Origin: Candidatus Poribacteria bacterium
Lineage (GTDB): Bacteria; Poribacteria; WGA-4E; WGA-3G
Direction: 5' to 3'
DNA: 64,000 bases
Assembly (NCBI GenBank): GCA_964291315.2
Contig: OZ219753.1
Span: 2,720,001 to 2,784,000, forward strand
Part shown: piece by piece, positions 6,141-51,899 of the stretch
Layout: each line of letters opens with the position of its first letter
Numbering within the stretch: the stretch's first letter is position 1
The notes under the pieces: model-generated
What the model saw: the letters and a program-made list of their open reading frames with translations, nothing else
Database searches by the model: none
Told to the model about the DNA's origin: nothing
Program-made: the position numbers and the translations under genes

Positions 6141-7229
6141 GTGTCTAAACGAGATGATTTTACCACTATCATTAAAACGTTGAAAAAAGCATTGCCTAGT
6201 ATTACCGATGACCAATATAAAAGGTTGGTCAGGCAAGGCATGCATGACTACGGACTCTCCCAGGATGAGGCAGAGCGGATCATCAAAAAAGAGGTAGGCC
6301 TGATTATTGGGAAAGTGGTAAATCATTTTCAGGAGTTAGGGCTCACAATTGATGACCTGAAAAACCTGAGTGAAGACGAAATCGAAAAACTTGTTCAGGC
6401 TAAGTATGATCTCCTTTATAAGCAGGCAAGAATTAGCGCCAATCCCAGGAATGCTGAGAAACAGGCAGCGTTGAATGCGGCAAGGGATACGCTACTTGAT
6501 CCACAGAGGCGGCAGGAACACATTCAACTCCTTGAGCGGCAGAAAACGTCTTCCAACACCGAGGATGGAAACTCTCAGAAACGCAGTAGCACAGACGTGA
6601 GAGCTATCTTCAAGTTCGGGAAGGTAGCGGCTATTTTAGCAATTCTTGCTTTTCTGCTCTTATTGGGACTTGGACTTGATAACATTATCAAAAATTCGAA
6701 AACACAACCCCACGCTACAGAATTCCAAGAAGGCAAGCCTGCAACCGTACTACGCGCACGTCGTACTGGGGCAGGCACAACGGGCTCGCCAGCAAAGCCT
6801 CAGATCGATCCCACAACGGTGGTGGCCGTTATTGAAACGGCAAAGGGCACTATTGAATTTGAATTTCTTGCAACTGAAGCACCCGAAACTTCCAAGAATT
6901 TCATTAAGAACGCCCAAGTCATGTATTATAAAGGCGAGAAGTTTAATCGCGCAGAAGAACTTCTCGTCCAAGCAGGATCGAATCTCGCCGCCGGAGACAC
7001 ACTTCCAATTGAGAACGGTTCGCAACAGATGTCGCGGGGCGTTGTCGCCCTAGCGAAAGAAGAAGGGGCGAGTGTCTCCTATGTGTCAGAATTCTTTATC
7101 TGTCGAGGCGATGTTATTCTTGACAGTGATTACACCATTTTCGGAAACGTCGTCAGCGGTATGGAGGTCGTTGACAGAATCACCGTTGGCGACGCAATTA
7201 TGAACATTACTATTCGAGAGAAAGAGTAA
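6141..7229 (+). CDS. Membrane-anchored protein: helical N-domain + degenerate J-like domain + TM + cyclophilin-type PPIase-like domain
   Basis: NHFQELGL...SEDEIEK...LNAARDTLLDPQRRQEH (J-fold pattern, no HPD); TM VAAILAILAFLLLLGLGL; APETSKNF, SEFFI, YTIFGNVVSGMEVVDRI cyclophilin motifs; AAGGAG RBS. Confidence 0.8.
   Translation: MSKRDDFTTIIKTLKKALPSITDDQYKRLVRQGMHDYGLSQDEAERIIKKEVGLIIGKVVNHFQELGLTIDDLKNLSEDEIEKLVQAKYDLLYKQARISANPRNAEKQAALNAARDTLLDPQRRQEHIQLLERQKTSSNTEDGNSQKRSSTDVRAIFKFGKVAAILAILAFLLLLGLGLDNIIKNSKTQPHATEFQEGKPATVLRARRTGAGTTGSPAKPQIDPTTVVAVIETAKGTIEFEFLATEAPETSKNFIKNAQVMYYKGEKFNRAEELLVQAGSNLAAGDTLPIENGSQQMSRGVVALAKEEGASVSYVSEFFICRGDVILDSDYTIFGNVVSGMEVVDRITVGDAIMNITIREKE
6246..6724 (+). 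repeat. Near-identical direct repeat, copy 1 (copy 2 at 8549-9027)
   Basis: About 480 bp, offset 2303; only two substitutions seen (V/A and A/T codons); preceding ~105 nt and RBS are homologous but more diverged. Confidence 0.9.
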
Positions 7230-7361: not shown

Positions 7362-7568
7362 ATGTCTTTAACTGTTACTCGAACGGCGCGTCCAAGCCCC
7401 GTCTGGCAGGAAAGTTACGTGCGCGTCAAAAAAGGGCAACGTCTCATTATTGATGCAGAGGGCGCGTGGTCCCCGGATCTGCAAAATCGGACCGGATGGT
7501 GCGGCGGAGATGGGGTGCCTAAGACCCCAGGCTCCAACGGTTATCTATTACCCGGCACAAATAGTTGA
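7362..7568 (+). pseudogene. Truncated LecA/PA-IL-like beta-sandwich N-terminus joined out of frame to an FGE repeat
   Basis: GGAGG RBS; WQESYVRVKKGQRLIIDAEGAWS...CGGDG...YLLPG; stop codon overlaps the first bases of the FGE linker repeat. Confidence 0.5.
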
Positions 7569-8379
7569 TGAAAACCCTCAAAAATGGAGTAGCAGAGACA
7601 CGCAAGCCCTCGACACCGCAGTCTCAGGGATGGTATTGATCCCATCGGGCACCTTTCGGATGGGCAGCACCACAGGCGATGCCAATGAACGCCCTGTTCA
7701 CACTGTCACTTTAGATGCGTTTTATATGGATACACACGAAGTAACAAACGCAGAATACGTCAAATTTCTCAATGCTATGGGCAGACATGCAAATGCCGGC
7801 CGTCCATGGCTGGCTATCTGGAAGAGTGGTGTGCGCATTGAGCGTTTAGGTGGAACGTATCGCCCAAAGGCGGGGTATGCGGATCATCCTGTTGTTCATG
7901 TGAGCTGGTATGGTGCGATGGCTTATGCTGCCTGGGTAGGCAAGCGTCTGCCGACCGAGGCGGAGTGGGAGTATGCCGCACGCGGTGGGTTAGCAGGGAA
8001 GGAATATCCTTGGGACGACACGATTGACAGCACGCGGGCAAACTACAACGATAATGTCGGTAGTACGACAGCAGTTGGCAGTTATGATGCGAACGGGTAT
8101 GGTCTGTATGATATGGCGGGGAATGTCTGGGAATGGTGTCTGGATGCGTACAACAAACACTTCTATACCATTTCATCTGCCTGTAATCCGCTATCGGGGC
8201 CGTCCAGGATTGATTGGTTATTGAGAAACTATACAAATGTTGAGTCTAATCGCGTCTTGCGTGGCGGATCTTGGTACAGTACAGCGCAAAAGGTACGAGT
8301 TGCCTATCGCTACAAATCTTCTCCTGCGCGCACGAACGTCAGTGTCGGTTTTCGTTGTGCAAGTTCTGTATCCGCTTGA
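7567..8379 (+). CDS. Single FGE-sulfatase (SUMF1-like, CLec-fold) domain with no proper start
   Basis: MVLIPSGTFRMG, RLPTEAEWEYAARGG, GLYDMAGNVWEWC, RVLRGGSW...GFRC; homology to the repeat unit begins at 7567. Confidence 0.75.
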   Translation, partial: DENPQKWSSRDTQALDTAVSGMVLIPSGTFRMGSTTGDANERPVHTVTLDAFYMDTHEVTNAEYVKFLNAMGRHANAGRPWLAIWKSGVRIERLGGTYRPKAGYADHPVVHVSWYGAMAYAAWVGKRLPTEAEWEYAARGGLAGKEYPWDDTIDSTRANYNDNVGSTTAVGSYDANGYGLYDMAGNVWEWCLDAYNKHFYTISSACNPLSGPSRIDWLLRNYTNVESNRVLRGGSWYSTAQKVRVAYRYKSSPARTNVSVGFRCASSVSA

Positions 8380-8443
8380 ACCTTTACTTTACTCCCTGTG
8401 GCACAGATGGACAGTTTATGCTACAGATTATAAGGAGTAGCAC

Positions 8444-11400
8444 ATGTCTAAACGAGATGATTTTACCATTTTTATTCAGGGATGGAAAAAAGCTGCCCCT
8501 AATATTACTGTTGACCAATACAAAGGGTTAATCAGGCAAGGCATACACGACTACGGACTCTCCCAGGATGAGGCAGAGCGGATCATCAAAAAAGAGGTAG
8601 GCCTGATTATTGGGAAAGCGGTAAATCATTTTCAGGAGTTAGGGCTCACAATTGATGACCTGAAAAACCTGAGTGAAGACGAAATCGAAAAACTTGTTCA
8701 GGCTAAGTATGATCTCCTTTATAAGCAGGCAAGAATTAGCGCCAATCCCAGGAATGCTGAGAAACAGGCAGCGTTGAATGCGGCAAGGGATACGCTACTT
8801 GATCCACAGAGGCGGCAGGAACACATTCAACTCCTTGAGCGGCAGAAAACGTCTTCCAACACCGAGGATGGAAACTCTCAGAAACGCAGTAGCACAGACG
8901 TGAGAGCTATCTTCAAGTTCGGGAAGGTAGCGGCTATTTTAGCAATTCTTGCTTTTCTGCTCTTATTGGGACTTGGACTTGATAACATTATCAAAAATTC
9001 GAAAACACAACCCCACACTACAGAATTTGTTGATGATTCGCCGAAGGGGTCTTCGGGCACCGCAGCAATCTCAGAGAGGTCTGCATCCTCTACACAGCAG
9101 GAAACTTCTTCCAGCACGGACGATGGAAACCGACAGAAACGCAATAGCAGAGACGCGCTAACCCCCGAACCCCCAGTCTCAGGGATGGTATTGATCCCAT
9201 CGGGCACCTTTCGGATGGGCAGCACCACAGGTGATGCCAATGAACGCCCTGTTCACACTGTTACTGTAGATGCGTTTTATATGGATACGCACGAAGTAAC
9301 AAACGCACAATACGCCGATTTTCTTAATGCTATGGGCAGACATGCAGATGCGGGTCATACGTGGTTGGCTCTCGGTAGCCGTGGTGCACACATTGAGCGT
9401 TTAGGTGGAACGTATCGCCCGAAGGCGGGGTATGCGGATCATCCTGTTGTTCGTGTGAGTTGGTATGGTGCGATGGCATATGCGAAGTGGGCAGGCAAGC
9501 GCCTGCCTACCGAGGCGGAGTGGGAATACGCCGCACGCGGCGGCGAGTCGGGTCTGAAGTATCCCTGGGGAAACACGATTGACAGCACACGGGCAAACTA
9601 CGACAGAAATGTCGGTGAGACGACAAGAGTAGGGCATTATGGTGCAAATAGCTATGGTCTGTATGACATGGTCGGAAATGTCTATGAATGGTGCTTAGAT
9701 GCATATAATAGAGACTCCTATGCCAGTTATCCTGCCCGTAATCCGCTATCGGGTGCGTTTAGTATTCATTGGCTATCAGATAATTATACAGAGATTAAGT
9801 CTAGACGCGTCTTGCGTGGCGGATCTTGGCTCAGTGAAGCTCAGTACGTGCGGGTCGCCAACCGCTTTGACTATACGCCGACGAGCACGTCCCTCTTCAC
9901 AGGCTTTCGTTGCGCAAGGTCTGCATCCTCTACACAACAGGAAACCCCTCCCAGCCCGGACGATGAAAACCCTCAAAAATGGAGTAGCAGAGACGCGCAA
10001 CCCTCCGACCCATCAGTCTCAGGGATGGTATTGATCCCATCGGGCACCTTTCGGATGGGCAGCACCACAGGTGATGCCAATGAACGCCCTGTTCACACTG
10101 TTACTGTAGATGCGTTTTATATGGATACACACGAAGTAACAAACGCACAATACGCGGACTTTCTTAATGCTATGGGTAGACATGCAGATGCGGGTCATAC
10201 GTGGTTGGCTCTCGGTAGCCGTGGTGCACACATTGAGCGTTTAGGCGGAACGTATCGTGTGAAAGCAGGGTATGCGGATCATCCTGTTGTTCGTGTGAGT
10301 TGGTATGGTGCAATGGCATATGCGAAGTGGGCAGGCAAGCGTCTGCCGACGGAGGCGGAGTGGGAGTATGCTGCGCGCGGCGGCAAGTCGGGTCTGAAGT
10401 ATCCGTGGGGAAACACGATTGACAGCTGGCATGCGAACTACGACAGAAATATCGGTAAGACAACAAGAGTAGGGCATTATGGTGCAAATAGCTATGGTCT
10501 GTATGACATGGTCGGAAATGTCTACGAATGGTGCTTAGATGCATATAATAGAGACTCCTATGCTAGTTCTCCTGCTCACAATCCAGGTACGTTTAGTATT
10601 CAGTGGCTGTTAGATAATTATACAGAGATTAAGTCTGACCGCGTCTTGCGTGGCGGCTCCTGGGCCGGTTCAGCATGGCTCGTGCGTGTTGCCAATCGTG
10701 GCAGCTTTTCGCCTTGGATAACGGGCGCCGGCCTCGGTTTCCGTTGTGTAAGGTCTGTATCTCTTACGCGGCAGGAAACACCTCCCAGCCCGGATGATGA
10801 AAACTCTCAAAAATGGAGTAGCAGAGACGTGCTAACCCCCGCCCCCCCAGTCTCAGATATGGTATTGATCCCATCGGGCACCTTCCAGATGGGCAGCACC
10901 ACAGGTGATGCCAATGAACGTCCTGTTCACACTGTTACTGTAGATGCGTTTTATATGGATACGCACGAAGTGACGAACGCAGAATACGCCGCGTTCCTCA
11001 ATGCGAAGGGAAAACACACAGACGCTGGCAAGACTTGGTTGTTTATCGGTAGCAGTGGTGCACGCATTGAGCGTTTAGGTGGAACGTATCGCCCAAAGAC
11101 AGGGTATGCGGATCATCCTGTTGTTTATGTGAGCTGGTATGGTGCGATGGCGTATGCGAAGTGGAAGGGCAAGCGGCTGCCGACGGAAGCAGAGTGGGAA
11201 TACGCTGCTCGCGGCGGATTAGCAGGCAAACTTTATCCCTGGGGCGACACCGTAGACTCCAGCCGTGCGAACTATGATTGGAACGTCGGTAGGACAACGG
11301 CAGGCGGTGCGTATGCTGCGAACGATTACGGTCTGTATGATATGGTCGGAAATGTTTCGGAGTGGTGTCTGGATGCGTATGATAGCGCCTTCTATACCAG

Positions 11401-13282
11401 TTATCCTGCCCATAATCCGCTATCGGGTGCGTCTAGTATCCAGTGGCTGTTAGATAATTATACAGAGATTAAGTCTGACCGCGTCTTGCGTGGCGGCTCC
11501 TGGGCCAGTTTAGCAGGGCTTGTACGGGTTGCCAACCGCAGTAACTTTTCGCCTGGGGTAACGAGCTCCGTCTTCGGTTTCCGTTGTGTAAAGCCTGTAT
11601 CTCTTACGCGGCAGGAAACCCCTCCCAGCCCGGACGATGAAAACCCTCAAAAATGGAGTAGCAGAGACGCGCAACCCTTCGACACCGCAGTCTCAGGGAT
11701 GGTATTGATCCCATCGGGCACCTTTCGGATGGGCAGCACCACAGGTGATGCGGATGAACGCCCTGTTCACACTGTCACTTTAGATGCGTTTTATATGGAT
11801 ACATACGAAGTGACGAACGCAGAATACGCCGATTTTCTTAATGCTATGGGCAGACATGCCGATGCGGGTCATACGTGGTTAAATATGGATAGCGGCGGTG
11901 TACGCATCGAGCGTTTGGGCGGAACGTATCGTGTGAAAGCGGGGTATGCGGATCATCCTGTTGTTCATGTGAGTTGGTATGGTGCAATGGCATATGCGAA
12001 GTGGAAGGGCAAGCGCCTGCCTACCGAGGCGGAGTGGGAGTATGCAGCACGCGGCGGCAAGTCGGGTCTGAAGTATCCCTGGGGAAACACGATTGACAGC
12101 ACGCATGCAAACTACGGCAGAAATGTCGGTAAGACAACAAGAGTAGGGCATTATGGTGCAAATAGCTATGGTCTGTATGACATGGTCGGAAATGTCTATG
12201 AATGGTGCTTAGATGCATATAATAGAGACTCCTATGCTAGTTCTCCTGCTCACAATCCTGGAGCGTCTAGTATTCATTGGCTATTAGATAATTATGCAAA
12301 GGTTGAGTCTCAACGCGTCTTGCGCGGCGGATCTTGGCTCAGTGAAGCTCAGTACGTGCGGGTCGCCTACCGCAACTACTATACGCCGACGAGCACGTCC
12401 TTCTTCACAGGCTTTCGTTGTGCAAGGTCTGCATCCTCTACACAACAGGAAACCTCTTCCAACACGGACAATAGAAACTATCAGAAACGTAGCAGCAGAG
12501 ACGCGCAACCCTCCGACCCATCAGTCTCAGGGATGGTATTGATCCCATCGGGCACCTTTCGGATGGGCAGCACCACAGGTGATGCGGATGAAAGCCCTAT
12601 TCACACTGTCACTTTAGATGCGTTTTATATGGATACACACGAAGTAACAAACGCAGAATACGCGGATTTTCTTAATGCTATGGGCAGACATGCAGATGCA
12701 GGCCATACATGGCTGGCTATCTGGAAGAGTGGTGTGCGCATTGAGCCTTTAGATAGAACGTATCGTGTGAAAGCGGGGTATGCGGATCATCCTGTTGTTC
12801 ATGTGAGTTGGTATGGTGCGATGGCGTATGCTGCGTGGGCGGGCAAGCGCCTGCCTACCGAGGCGGAGTGGGAATATGCCGCACGCGGCGGCAAGTCGGG
12901 TCTGAAGTATCCGTGGGGAAACACGATTGACAGCACGCAGGCGAGATACGCTAGAAAGACCCGTAGTCCGACAGCGGTAGGGCGTTATGCTGCGAACGGG
13001 TATGGTCTGTATGATATGGTCGGAAATGTCTGGGAGTGGTGTCTGGATGCGTATGACAAAAACTTCTATACCATTTCACCTACTTCTAATCCGCTATCGG
13101 GCGCGTCTAGTATTCAGTGGCTGTTAGATAATTATGCAGAGATTAAGTCTAGACGCGTCTTGCGTGGCGGCTCCTGGGAAAATACAGCGGGAAACGTGCG
13201 GGCCGCCTTCCGCTTTTATGATACGCCGACGAGCACGTTCCCCGTCACCGGTTTCCGTTGTGCAAGGTCTGTATCGCCTTGA
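8444..13282 (+). CDS. Membrane-anchored protein: helical N-domain + degenerate J-like domain + TM + five tandem FGE-sulfatase/CLec domains; putative DGR target
   Basis: 1612 aa; five MVLIPSG...GFRC units; catalytic FGE cysteines absent after RGGSW. Confidence 0.88.
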   Translation: MSKRDDFTIFIQGWKKAAPNITVDQYKGLIRQGIHDYGLSQDEAERIIKKEVGLIIGKAVNHFQELGLTIDDLKNLSEDEIEKLVQAKYDLLYKQARISANPRNAEKQAALNAARDTLLDPQRRQEHIQLLERQKTSSNTEDGNSQKRSSTDVRAIFKFGKVAAILAILAFLLLLGLGLDNIIKNSKTQPHTTEFVDDSPKGSSGTAAISERSASSTQQETSSSTDDGNRQKRNSRDALTPEPPVSGMVLIPSGTFRMGSTTGDANERPVHTVTVDAFYMDTHEVTNAQYADFLNAMGRHADAGHTWLALGSRGAHIERLGGTYRPKAGYADHPVVRVSWYGAMAYAKWAGKRLPTEAEWEYAARGGESGLKYPWGNTIDSTRANYDRNVGETTRVGHYGANSYGLYDMVGNVYEWCLDAYNRDSYASYPARNPLSGAFSIHWLSDNYTEIKSRRVLRGGSWLSEAQYVRVANRFDYTPTSTSLFTGFRCARSASSTQQETPPSPDDENPQKWSSRDAQPSDPSVSGMVLIPSGTFRMGSTTGDANERPVHTVTVDAFYMDTHEVTNAQYADFLNAMGRHADAGHTWLALGSRGAHIERLGGTYRVKAGYADHPVVRVSWYGAMAYAKWAGKRLPTEAEWEYAARGGKSGLKYPWGNTIDSWHANYDRNIGKTTRVGHYGANSYGLYDMVGNVYEWCLDAYNRDSYASSPAHNPGTFSIQWLLDNYTEIKSDRVLRGGSWAGSAWLVRVANRGSFSPWITGAGLGFRCVRSVSLTRQETPPSPDDENSQKWSSRDVLTPAPPVSDMVLIPSGTFQMGSTTGDANERPVHTVTVDAFYMDTHEVTNAEYAAFLNAKGKHTDAGKTWLFIGSSGARIERLGGTYRPKTGYADHPVVYVSWYGAMAYAKWKGKRLPTEAEWEYAARGGLAGKLYPWGDTVDSSRANYDWNVGRTTAGGAYAANDYGLYDMVGNVSEWCLDAYDSAFYTSYPAHNPLSGASSIQWLLDNYTEIKSDRVLRGGSWASLAGLVRVANRSNFSPGVTSSVFGFRCVKPVSLTRQETPPSPDDENPQKWSSRDAQPFDTAVSGMVLIPSGTFRMGSTTGDADERPVHTVTLDAFYMDTYEVTNAEYADFLNAMGRHADAGHTWLNMDSGGVRIERLGGTYRVKAGYADHPVVHVSWYGAMAYAKWKGKRLPTEAEWEYAARGGKSGLKYPWGNTIDSTHANYGRNVGKTTRVGHYGANSYGLYDMVGNVYEWCLDAYNRDSYASSPAHNPGASSIHWLLDNYAKVESQRVLRGGSWLSEAQYVRVAYRNYYTPTSTSFFTGFRCARSASSTQQETSSNTDNRNYQKRSSRDAQPSDPSVSGMVLIPSGTFRMGSTTGDADESPIHTVTLDAFYMDTHEVTNAEYADFLNAMGRHADAGHTWLAIWKSGVRIEPLDRTYRVKAGYADHPVVHVSWYGAMAYAAWAGKRLPTEAEWEYAARGGKSGLKYPWGNTIDSTQARYARKTRSPTAVGRYAANGYGLYDMVGNVWEWCLDAYDKNFYTISPTSNPLSGASSIQWLLDNYAEIKSRRVLRGGSWENTAGNVRAAFRFYDTPTSTFPVTGFRCARSVSP
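9185..13282 (+). repeat. Five tandem intragenic repeats of 834-840 bp
   Basis: Unit starts (ATG of MVLIPSG) at 9185, 10025, 10859, 11699, 12533; further homologues at 7630 and 51135. Confidence 0.95.
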
Positions 13283-13329
13283 TTCTGAATCGCAGATGAA
13301 ATCGACGAAAGGCGCGGAAAATACAATCC

Positions 13330-13383
13330 GGGGCGTGATGGCAGGTAGCCTTCTACTGACGACTATCACCCCCCTTTATTTAT
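13330..13383 (+). terminator. Long hairpin with T-rich tail; homologous to 51965-52016
   Basis: GGGGCGTGATGG...CTATCACCCCCC then TTTATTTAT. Confidence 0.6.
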
Positions 13384-13699
13384 CGCTGGCTCTCTATCTT
13401 TAGAATGGAACCTCCTATTCCCGGCCACACATTATACCCTCCCCCCGGCAAAACAGCCCTCATGAAACCCTACTGAGACGCATTAAATACTGAAACGGAC
13501 AAAACAGAGCATATCTATAGATGTCATGATCCAACTAAGACGCTGCGCATGTTTAAATTTTTTCCAGAAAACAGTTCGCGAGGCTCAGAGATCCCTCGGA
13601 CAGAAGCTCTGAATGCTCCCTCGTTAGTTTTTTCTATTGCACCTGTTCACACAATATGCTAAATTAAAATGATATTTGAATCCAGAGGAGGACTATTAA

Positions 13700-49975: not shown

Positions 49976-50042
49976 TTTAACTTCACAAATAACAAGCAAT
50001 AAATATACATCTGTGTATCTTCACAGAGAAAAGAAGCATAAA

Positions 50043-51899
50043 ATGAAAAGAACATTAGTGGTTTTTTCCGTGCTTGCCGCGTTTATGTTTGCAAGCGCCC
50101 CGTTCGCAGCGGCAGAATGGCAAGAGAACATGGTAACCAATAACACGCTTGAAGAGATCTATGTGATCAAGAGCACCTGGCAGGCAGCAGATGATAACAA
50201 AGGTATCCCTGCAGGGTTCTGGACGCGCGGCTCTTACCGGCTTGCTCCCGGGAAGTCTAGGATTTTCCATTCCTGGGACACCAACAGCATCTATTTCCGT
50301 ATTTCAAACGCACAGGGTGCGATAAAAGCGAACAGCGGCACGACGGCTTTTGCGTTCTGGTCTCATCCGGGTCGCTCCTTCCGCGTTGTCTCACAGACGT
50401 TCGATGCCTCTGTGACGACGGATCAGCTGCTCTACTCTGATCGTTCGCCGGGTCAGTTGGCTCAATTGGAGGGATTTGTCAGCTATACAGGCGGCTCGGC
50501 AGTGGTTGTCACTCCGACGTGGGTGTCGCTAGATGGACAGCCGACTGCTCCGCCGAATGACGAACTCGGAGACGATGGGGGTCGGCCTGGTGAAGATGTT
50601 GCGCCGCCTGCGTGGGTAGCGAGCGTGATAACAAATGCCACGGAAGCCGACCTATATGTAGTCTACGCGACGTGGAAGTTGGAGAACTCGAAGAAAGGGT
50701 ATCCGGAGGGATTTCGGACGCGCGGCACGTATCGCATTCGTTCAGGGAAGGGGCGCGTATTTCATGCCTGGGCGGATAACGAGATCTATTTTCGGATTGC
50801 CAATGCTGCGGGAGCGTTAAAACCGGAGGCGAGCTCGGAGACGTTTGGGTTCTGGTTGCATCCGAGTCGTTCGTTTCGGCTGGTCTCGGATCAGATTTCT
50901 GCGACTGTAGCCACGTCAAGCTTGAGTTACTCGGATCGTTCGGTGTCGAAGTTAGAGCGTTCGGATGGCTTTATGGTGTATGAGAGCGGTTCTGACGTGA
51001 CGGTGACTGCTGATTGGGTGCCGGTCTCTCCTGTTGAGGTCGGGAATAATGGTAACGGGAATGAGGGTGACGATGGCGCTCCACCGCCTCCCAAAACCCC
51101 AACCCCGCCAAAAACCCCAGTAGTTCCTGCAGGCATGGTGTTGATCCCTGCAGGCACCTTCCAGATGGGCAGCACTATAGGCGATGCAGATGAAAGCCCC
51201 GTCCACGCTGTGTCTTTAGACGCATTTTATATGGATACACACGAAGTGACAAACGCAGAATACGTCGCGTTTCTCAATGCGGCCAAATACACAGATATCC
51301 TTACTTATGCGGTTACCCCTCAGGCCAGTTGGGCACACATTGCATTAGTAGATGGTGTGTATCGTGCGAAGGCGGGGTATGCGAATCGTCCCGTTGTTCA
51401 TGTGAATTGGTATGGTGCGATGGCGTATGCTGCGTGGGCAGGAAAACGACTCCCCACCGAGGCAGAGTGGGAGTATGCCGCCCGAGGCGGGTTAGCTGGA
51501 AAGGAATATCCCTGGGGAAACACCATAGATAAAACCAAGGCGAACTATAACTATGATGACAGCTTCGGCGATGGTTTGACGGCAGTCGGTAGTTATCCGG
51601 CGAATGGGTATGGTCTGTATGATATGGTAGGTAATGTCTGGGAGTGGTGTCTGGATGCGTATGATAGGGAGTTCTATGCGAAATCTGCTGCCGAGAACCC
51701 GTTATCGGGTGGTTCCAGTATTCAGTGGTTATTAGATAACTACCCAGACCGCGCCTTGCGTGACACTTACCGCGTCTTGCGTGGCGGCTCCTGGCGCACT
51801 TCAGCCCAGGATGTGCGGGTCGCCCAACGCGTCTACAATGCGCCCAGTTTCTTGGGCCCCTTTAATGGGTTCCGTTGTGTGAAGTCAGTGTCTCCTTGA
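50043..51899 (+). CDS. Secreted protein: signal peptide, two ~140-aa beta-rich repeats, Pro-rich linker, FGE-sulfatase/CLec domain; putative DGR target
   Basis: MKRTLVVFSVLAAFMFASAPFAAA signal; TN.TE..IYV..TW...G.P.GF.TRG.YR repeats; FGE motifs without catalytic Cys. Confidence 0.85.
   Translation: MKRTLVVFSVLAAFMFASAPFAAAEWQENMVTNNTLEEIYVIKSTWQAADDNKGIPAGFWTRGSYRLAPGKSRIFHSWDTNSIYFRISNAQGAIKANSGTTAFAFWSHPGRSFRVVSQTFDASVTTDQLLYSDRSPGQLAQLEGFVSYTGGSAVVVTPTWVSLDGQPTAPPNDELGDDGGRPGEDVAPPAWVASVITNATEADLYVVYATWKLENSKKGYPEGFRTRGTYRIRSGKGRVFHAWADNEIYFRIANAAGALKPEASSETFGFWLHPSRSFRLVSDQISATVATSSLSYSDRSVSKLERSDGFMVYESGSDVTVTADWVPVSPVEVGNNGNGNEGDDGAPPPPKTPTPPKTPVVPAGMVLIPAGTFQMGSTIGDADESPVHAVSLDAFYMDTHEVTNAEYVAFLNAAKYTDILTYAVTPQASWAHIALVDGVYRAKAGYANRPVVHVNWYGAMAYAAWAGKRLPTEAEWEYAARGGLAGKEYPWGNTIDKTKANYNYDDSFGDGLTAVGSYPANGYGLYDMVGNVWEWCLDAYDREFYAKSAAENPLSGGSSIQWLLDNYPDRALRDTYRVLRGGSWRTSAQDVRVAQRVYNAPSFLGPFNGFRCVKSVSP

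Follow-up and report, generated by a model that had tools for sequence, protein, structure and literature searches.

A 64-kb stretch of the genome of a Candidatus Poribacteria bacterium (G000:C4:2720001-2784000, hereafter the window; bare positions count from its first base, and all window features named below lie on the + strand) contains seven copies of a 108-nt segment that carry the codon signature of a diversity-generating retroelement (DGR). A preliminary description of the window, drawn from its sequence alone, interpreted these segments as variable regions (VRs) of DGR targets, predicted the template repeat (TR) from which they would have been written, and proposed that the retroelement itself lies at a distance. 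We report that a DGR with an intact TR is present on another contig of the same genome, and that the window VRs are almost certainly of DGR origin. We further present evidence, to which we attach a probability of roughly two in three, that these VRs are former remote targets of a DGR, now retired or rarely visited, which were spread by duplication.

FGE-type domains and their C-terminal segments

The seven segments begin at positions 8251, 9806, 10640, 11480, 12314, 13154 and 51771 and align without gaps, each reading RVLRGGSW, 24 codons and GFRC. Re-reading of the DNA found these positions, and all codons quoted in the preliminary description, to be exact. In segment order, codon 21 after the tryptophan is AAC, TCC, GGC, AGC, TCC, TTC and GGC and codon 22 is GTC, CTC, GCC, TCC, TTC, CCC and CCC; codons 2 and 15 end in T in 7/7 segments. 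Every segment forms the C-terminal end of a Pfam FGE-sulfatase domain (PF03781), of which the open reading frame (ORF) 8444-13282 possesses five stretches and the ORFs 7450-8379 and 50013-51899 one each, and in each case the VR ends 5-7 codons ahead of a domain, linker or stop boundary.

The five-domain protein (8444..13282, 1612 aa; PF03781, 1125 bits over five stretches) begins with a cytoplasmic module of ~160 aa, for which Pfam and NCBIfam searches returned zero matches. A single transmembrane (TM) helix at aa 162-179 (nt 8927-8980) is preceded by K/R-rich sequence, and a Ser/Thr-rich stalk is present. The FGE-sulfatase/C-type-lectin (CLec) domains start at nt 9185, 10025, 10859, 11699 and 12533 and are separated by S/T/P/Q-rich linkers, linker and domain together forming a unit repeated with a period of 834/840 nt; this period exceeds the 500-nt limit of Tandem Repeats Finder, which returned no rows. 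Compared with solved structures, domain 4 matches FGE (6s07, 1e-39) and the variable protein of Treponema denticola (2y3c, 1.8e-16). The LCHESYC motif of 6s07, whose cysteines we take to be the catalytic pair of formylglycine-generating enzyme, aligns with WLSEAQY of domain 4, where no Cys is found. Because WLSEAQY occupies the place of the enzyme motif, the domains appear to be lectin-like binders rather than enzymes.

The two remaining carriers possess a single FGE domain. The ORF at 7450..8379 (309 aa; VR 8251-8358) comprises an array-type linker and one FGE unit, has no signal peptide or anchor and a doubtful TTG start, and bears the most drifted VR of the seven. It resembles a unit that has come away from the adjacent array, and it may not be expressed in its annotated form. 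The secreted protein encoded at 50013..51899 (628 aa; VR 51771-51878) has two N-terminal repeats of ~170 aa ahead of its FGE domain. Its signal peptide, ending in AAAEWQENM, is common to this protein and at least 12 paralogs in the genome; the two ~170-aa domain copies (50013-51134; …IYVIKSTWQ…GFWTRGSYRL…IYFRI…) lie between the signal peptide and the FGE domain.

A template repeat and two cassettes outside the window

A genuine DGR is present elsewhere in the same genome. An RVT_1 search of the whole genome identified two reverse transcriptase (RT) ORFs of 352 aa, at C4:495156-496214 and C3:31921-32979 (78-79 bits), that are 99% identical to one another and possess the motifs IGNLTSQ and YVDD; the SQ motif distinguishes RTs of the DGR type. 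The libraries searched had no dedicated DGR-RT model, and the group II intron model scores the RT at 147 bits, under its cut-off of 300. Ahead of each RT lie a gene for a 115-aa Avd (NF033474 DivGenRetAVD, 112.7 bits against a cut-off of 80; PF22296 bAvd, 77.9 against a cut-off of 40) and one for a 462/463-aa FGE target. The order of the cassette is target-avd-RT-TR, and the two cassettes align over 3,824 bp at 97.15% identity. Neither an RT nor a TR was found inside the 64-kb window, as the preliminary description had stated, both RT matches of the genome falling outside it; the template repeat, RT and avd that it expected elsewhere are found in the C3 and C4 cassettes.

The intact TR, an A-rich copy of the VR, lies 75 nt downstream of the C3 RT stop (G000:C3:31739-31846) and reads NNTAQNVRVANRNNNTPTNTNNNNGFRC, with 32 A in 108 nt. 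Its translation is RVLRGGSW NNTAQNVRVANRNNNTPTNTNNNN GFRC, followed by AKTL and a stop, and includes twelve AAY codons (Y, pyrimidine), AAT occurring at exactly the two positions, codons 2 and 15, that end in T throughout the window. No FGE domain lies upstream of this segment, so it stands outside any target domain. In a whole-genome scan of the assembly, which is 95.2% complete, this was the one intact TR. The template inferred beforehand from the window VRs agrees with it at 84/87 nt, the differences (by eye) being AAA for ACA, CCG for CCA and TTC for TTT.

At the corresponding position of the other cassette (C4:496289-496400) stands a TR/VR hybrid, whose 5' third retains all adenines and whose 3' two-thirds are VR-like. 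It differs from the TR at 13/32 adenine positions (A sites) and at 0/76 other positions (non-A sites), and continues in frame into a 540-aa FGE ORF. Recombination of the TR with the VR of a downstream multi-domain target accounts for it most simply and would have left that cassette without an intact template; the alternative is an assembly join through the repeat. As a candidate template for the window VRs the hybrid was rejected, its non-A codons being kept (by eye) by no window VR.

An orthologous RT (80-83% identity) is present in 3/24 genomes of the same genus and in 0/16 genomes from other families of the order. Two of these three, G011 and G021, possess intact TRs with few non-A differences. 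In G022, the segment at the TR position (L006:2712-2819) is a hybrid of the opposite kind, diversified at its 5' end (SPSVRLVRVAF), TR-like at its 3' end (NNNTPTNTNNN) and one AAC codon shorter. Exchange between TR and VR may recur in the genus. A 45-nt TR pattern matches three public records, all Candidatus Poribacteria metagenome-assembled genomes; in the record with the same TR (G077), the flanking genes are ~75% identical and the FGE array is not syntenic. Within the present assembly, the first 13.2 kb of contig C3 (C3:1-13225) are the reverse complement of C2:1-13224 at 99.99% identity, which represents an overlap between contig ends or else a large inverted repeat in the assembly.

Origin and age of the window segments

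Segments resembling the TR were collected from the genome by a gapless scan requiring a match of >=60% at the 76 non-A positions. Five of the 50 segments obtained lack a terminal GFRC in the gapless register and were dropped (C3:29444, C3:30582, C4:497783, C4:2076350 and C4:497024), leaving 45 including the TR. Mismatches were then counted in a core extending from the first to the last template adenine, which comprises 32 A and 39 non-A sites. The window VRs differ from the TR at 17–25/32 A sites and at 1–9/39 core non-A sites (7-12/76 over the full length), and in all seven segments the mismatches are concentrated at TR adenines (Fisher p 0.013 to 2e-7), which bears out their attribution to DGR adenine mutagenesis in the preliminary description. 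Within the five-domain protein, the A-site and core non-A mismatches number 19/32 and 2/39 in domain 1 (9806..9913), 25/32 and 7/39 in domain 2 (10640..10747), 22/32 and 8/39 in domain 3 (11480..11587), 18/32 and 1/39 in domain 4 (12314..12421), the VR nearest the TR in the window, and 18/32 and 6/39 in the terminal domain 5 (13154..13261). The corresponding counts are 17/32 and 9/39 for the VR of ORF 7450-8379 (8251..8358) and 21/32 and 6/39 for that of ORF 50013-51899 (51771..51878).

Seven other VRs of the genome, all outside the window, are far closer to the template (0-1/39 core non-A mismatches, 0-3/76 overall), and we refer to these as clean. Segments at 0/39 are C4:494579, C3:33559, C3:227110, C4:500492, C4:501338, C4:1233679 and the C4 hybrid, and C1:562165 stands at 1/39; C3:29444, C3:30582 and C4:497783, which have one extra codon each, also stand at 1/39 in a motif-based census. 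At the far end, at 11-21/39, are TR-unlike paralogs, those of the 'STGGDLGFRC' type among them. Further genes lie at 2-9 non-A mismatches, so that the genome contains a continuous decay series; the census counted 53 such C-termini in 34 ORFs. The bases at A sites have like spectra in window VRs (A 84, T 65, G 49, C 26) and clean VRs (A 97, T 52, G 52, C 23).

Comparison of the VRs with the domains that bear them indicates how the window segments arose. The domain bodies (630 nt upstream of the VR) share 72-76% identity with their counterparts in clean targets, and the bodies of TR-unlike paralogs are similarly placed (69-75%). Identity to the TR at non-A core sites is 95% for VR 9806 and 97% for VR 12314, and the bodies of these two are only 72-73% identical to any clean target. 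Because these non-A sites match the TR far better than the bodies match, the VRs reflect template-driven replacement rather than common descent of the domains. The other five window VRs are 77-85% identical to the TR at non-A sites, compared with 56-67% in three TR-unlike paralogs. The twelve codons that are AAY in the TR have the form NNY in 76/84 cases in the window, as against 57% of codons in the domain bodies (binomial p=1.5e-11).

This last result bears on a reading in which no retroelement was involved, the domains being ordinary paralogous lectin domains whose loops diverged under positive selection while amino-acid or codon preference kept the third position. The NNY background is indeed high: TR-unlike FGE paralogs with 12-21/39 non-A mismatches, which are mutually non-independent (examples are C4:563437, C4:931610 and C1:512663), have NNY at 194/216 (90%) of the AAY-equivalent codons, as against 56% in their own bodies. 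Retention this strong in TR-unlike paralogs means that a kept third position alone is no proof of recent DGR action, and we rejected it as a stand-alone discriminator; in those paralogs it could be an ancient DGR imprint or an amino-acid preference of the binding loop. Positive selection alone nevertheless appears highly improbable, since it does not provide for the existence of a TR predicted to within 3/87 nt from the window VRs alone, for the excess of non-A matches to the TR over body identity in 9806 and 12314, or for the coincidence of the codons ending in T in 7/7 segments with the only two AAT codons of the TR.

Several lines of evidence suggest that the window VRs have aged since they were written. 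Their summed core non-A mismatches amount to 39/273, compared with 0/273 in the seven cleanest segments (Fisher p=8e-13, a descriptive value only, the groups having been defined by the same feature). TR-VR differences extend beyond adenines in five window VRs (6-9 core non-A), with 12314 (1) and 9806 (2) borderline. In 8251, 10640 and 11480, synonymous changes occur in codons for the invariant V-R-V and R residues (GTG>GTA, CGG>CGA/CGT, GTC>GTT, CGC>CGT), invariant codons of VR 11480 having drifted to GTA and GTT, and such changes in invariant codons match ordinary drift. The preliminary description had attributed the synonymous non-A differences to drift or to more than one template; of these, drift is favoured and a second template finds no support, as one intact TR was found in the 95.2%-complete assembly and the TRs of relatives fit no better.

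The A sites point to copying among the units. VRs 9806 and 12314 have 27/32 A-site states in common, 10640 and 11480 have 23/32, and 13154 has 17-18/32 in common with each of 9806 and 12314; the 21 possible pairs of clean VRs have 6-16/32 (mean 10.2). The independence of paralogous copies expected under continuing diversification is contradicted by the 27/32 and 23/32 pairs. Since the common states exceed the range of clean pairs, the five tandem VRs would represent about two or three mutagenesis events rather than five independent diversifications, 9806/12314 and 10640/11480 being copies of each other. The VR cores of 9806 and 12314 differ at 6/71 sites, which equals the 9% divergence of their bodies and suggests that neither has been re-written since copying. 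Additionally, the units are mosaics: 9806 and 10640 have bodies that are 93.6% identical and VRs that are 77% (non-A) and 22% (A) identical, and between 10640 and 11480 identity is 98% immediately ahead of the VR and 58-63% in mid-domain. This pattern, as far as the alignments go, points to gene conversion among units.

A set of observations weighs against retirement of the window VRs. VRs 12314 and 9806, with just 1-2/39 core non-A mismatches, lie within the range accepted for targets by curated surveys. According to excerpts of the published accounts, acceptance as a trans target requires that non-adenine sites match perfectly or nearly so (PMC10907252, PMC5758913), a standard of which five of the seven window VRs fall short and at which these two are borderline; non-A differences occur in 23% of surveyed DGRs, with a maximum of 11 in one target (PMC5758913). 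Long-distance action in trans works in this genome, as shown by the remote clean VRs C1:562165, C3:227110 and C4:1233679, and internal VRs can be clean, as are C4:500492 and C4:501338 of one 565-aa protein. The GCAAGGTCTGTATC-like 3' flanks of window VRs resemble those of clean VRs, and no lost targeting signal was found in them. Comparison of initiation of mutagenic homing (IMH) and hairpin sequences gave no element that divides clean from window VRs, the flanks of both groups being GYRARGTCTGTATC-like; a GTATCC-CCTTC-GGATGC hairpin was seen solely after certain internal clean VRs, and neither group has a hairpin common to its members. The 95.2% completeness of the assembly leaves room for a further TR that is missing. 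Finally, in contigs from the sequencing run X1, those bearing the window's exact VRs 8251, 10640 and 13154 have a depth of ~545-606, compared with ~1010-1060 for unique flanks.

The population data behind this last point are Logan contigs of two runs (X1 and X2) from one study, in which rare variants are dropped and repeats are fragmentary. X1 contigs of half depth (532-606 versus 1010-1061) cover 8118-8578, 8987-9203, 10637-10917, 11129-11470 and 13141-13428, which suggests that two array haplotypes co-exist in the X1 sample, the other form not having been recovered. In the 206 nt of an X2 contig across VR 11480 there are 8 differences and an insertion of 3 nt. Another X2 contig, linking 8264 to 13193, comes from a distant paralog (25 differing letters in 165) and was excluded. 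Over 7 kb, variant places show no adenine excess (A>N 50/204 in X1 and 65/273 in X2), a weak, contig-level indication in which 311/351 places are not itemized and no itemized piece covers a whole unit.

Taken at face value, the opposing observations favour the view that some or all window VRs, chiefly 9806 and 12314, are even now served in trans, if rarely, by the C3 TR and RT, their non-A differences stemming from RT errors, integration errors or post-homing selection. The strong adenine bias of the mismatches and the likeness of the 3' flanks to those of clean targets agree with this view, and the half-depth VR contigs of X1 may count in its favour. We consider it unlikely. Independent homing would randomize A sites, yet the two pairs named above have 27/32 and 23/32 states in common; the RT copies non-A bases faithfully, to judge from the seven clean VRs with 0-1/39 mismatches each; invariant codons have drifted synonymously; and the contig variants, weak evidence as they are, have no A>N excess. 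Of the earlier proposal that the window VRs are remote targets, the part that stands is that a DGR outside the window wrote them. Current service by that DGR does not agree with 7-12/76 non-A mismatches where seven other VRs have 0-3/76.

A different TR, belonging to a third DGR that was lost, is unassembled or lies in a co-resident element, might instead serve the window VRs or have served them in the past. This would fit the same non-A differences at core positions 37, 51, 77 and 81 in 10640 and 11480, the incompleteness of the assembly and the slight variation of the TR between species of the genus. The whole-genome scan gave only one intact TR, however, and the TRs of G011 and G021, tried as alternative templates, show 3-9 and 6-13 non-A mismatches to the window VRs, compared with 2-9 for the genome's own TR (position 96 counted; the 5'-diversified hybrid of G022 was left out of this comparison). 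Moreover, the 23/32 A-site states common to 10640 and 11480 argue for common descent rather than a common template, and the non-A differences of the remaining VRs are mostly private. A separate template is, in our judgement, quite improbable.

The preferred reading, of retired or rarely visited targets spread by duplication, can be set out as a series of steps. The DGR RT synthesized cDNA from the TR at G000:C3:31739-31846, misincorporating opposite template adenines, and the mutagenized cDNA replaced the C-terminal ligand-binding loop region of FGE-type CLec domains; this replacement step follows from the TR match together with the adenine-restricted pattern of mismatches. The window copies would then long have escaped re-writing and gathered ordinary substitutions at non-adenine sites, and a linker and domain unit of ~837 nt would have been duplicated and gene-converted to give a lineage-specific, membrane-anchored protein with five lectin heads. 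Ageing and duplication are suggested by the non-A drift, the common A-site states and the mosaic identity of the units.

The five-domain protein and its place among known systems

The five-domain protein is probably a non-enzymatic multivalent surface binding protein or receptor, a role suggested by the replacement of the catalytic Cys pair of FGE by the VR, and its binding specificities would be DGR-seeded and now germline-fixed. An ortholog with five domains was found neither among 60 genomes of the genus nor in JGI metagenome contigs nor in G077; in the JGI contigs, a query with the N-terminal 249 aa gave 310 pattern matches and 0 confirmed. None was found in a set of 5.8 billion proteins searched at lengths of 886-2821 aa, in which the protein's own cluster has one member and the closest protein outside the genome is 44-53% identical. 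With the best outside match at this level, the VRs have no strain-level comparator. The N-terminal module has matches in 19/60 genomes of the genus, at <=44% identity and in frames of ~400-840 aa; one locus of a relative (L015) encodes two adjacent proteins of ~440 aa, each composed of the module and a single FGE domain. A protein-atlas comparison of the module gave scores no higher than 0.82, among them a DnaJ cluster at 0.80, which amounts to no more than a lead.

Upstream of the array, the ORF at 6141..7229 encodes a 362-aa cyclophilin-fused protein (PPIase, PF00160, 8.5e-22). Module and TM helix make up its first ~200 residues, which match the N-terminus of the five-domain protein at 91% identity. 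By sequence comparison, the same anchor appears to bear different ectodomains, cyclophilin-type in 6141-7229 and FGE domains in 8444-13282.

Elsewhere, five tandem FGE proteins that were scanned contain 8, 6, 6, 5 and 4 stretches; the C-terminal loops of P0016 are strongly different and those of P0034 near-identical. The view that five tandem VRs are unusual needs qualification in this light: five units do stand in one ORF, but three have been published and public data contain 4-8 tandem FGE domains.

The template predicted from raw sequence to within 3/87 bases was then found on another contig, which makes the codon signature a reliable pointer to DGR history. VRs that look live, slightly aged and strongly aged beside an intact template offer a natural series on the recruitment, release and fixation of DGR targets. 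The five-headed protein suggests that binding sites derived from hypermutation can be kept and combined by duplication; by such duplication of DGR-written sites, somatic-like diversification could give rise to an inherited multivalent receptor. A bolder proposal is that the DGR acts as the birth engine of a germline repertoire, its tips being repeatedly released, frozen and amplified, so that all 53 FGE-type domains in 34 ORFs descend from retired targets. The decay series from 0 to 21/39 non-A mismatches and the NNY imprint in TR-unlike paralogs (194/216 versus 56%) hint at such an origin, which we offer as a doubtful extension. No earlier description of a DGR-rich case in the Poribacteria lineage was found in the literature searched.

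The DGR of Bordetella phage BPP-1 consists of the mtd VR, avd, the TR and brt, with an IMH and a downstream hairpin. The present system resembles it in the association of Avd, RT and TR and in the adenine-specific mutagenesis of AAY codons in the tip of a CLec fold. It differs in being cellular rather than phage-borne, in the location of the TR downstream of the RT, and in that no common IMH or hairpin can be defined.

Closer likenesses are found among chromosomal systems, which we compare as far as excerpts of the published accounts describe them. The DGR of Treponema denticola serves TvpA and remote FGE-type targets, up to seven (Wu et al. 2018, PMC5758913). Like that system, the present one is a non-phage chromosomal DGR with FGE-sulfatase/CLec targets, a C-terminal VR and several targets far from the RT, and the TvpA-like arrangement of a PF03781 domain with a VR at its C-terminal end is found in three window ORFs. 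Unlike that system, the cassette here is duplicated and has the order target-avd-RT-TR, the window copies differ from the TR at more than its adenines, and five stand in one ORF.

Tandem arrangements have also been described. One ORF of Marichromatium purpuratum 984, MarpuDRAFT_1558, contains three FGE VRs in tandem (Schillinger et al. 2012, PMC3521204; also PMC5758913), and the DGR 4/5 targets of Thiohalocapsa PB-PSB1 have three tandem CLec VR domains that a TR located elsewhere serves in trans (Doré et al. 2024, PMC10907252). To judge from these excerpts, tandem FGE/CLec domains, all with a terminal VR related to a single TR, are common to those targets and the window array, which differs in having five units rather than three, 1-9/39 core non-A mismatches, pairs of units with common A-site states, and an N-terminus formed by the module and TM helix where the compared proteins have vWA. 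A further parallel is the DGR 1 target of Thiohalocapsa PB-PSB1 (PMC10907252), whose DGR-imprinted VRs are, like those of the window, apparently not diversifying; as excerpted, its VR matches its TR at all non-A sites, whereas here a graded decay from 0 to 9/39 stands beside an intact TR. Tandem FGE VRs, three per ORF, and trans targets are already published in these accounts, and the system described here belongs among them; the features of moderate interest are its five units in one ORF, the decay series beside an intact TR, the recombined TR of the second cassette and the Poribacteria-lineage host.

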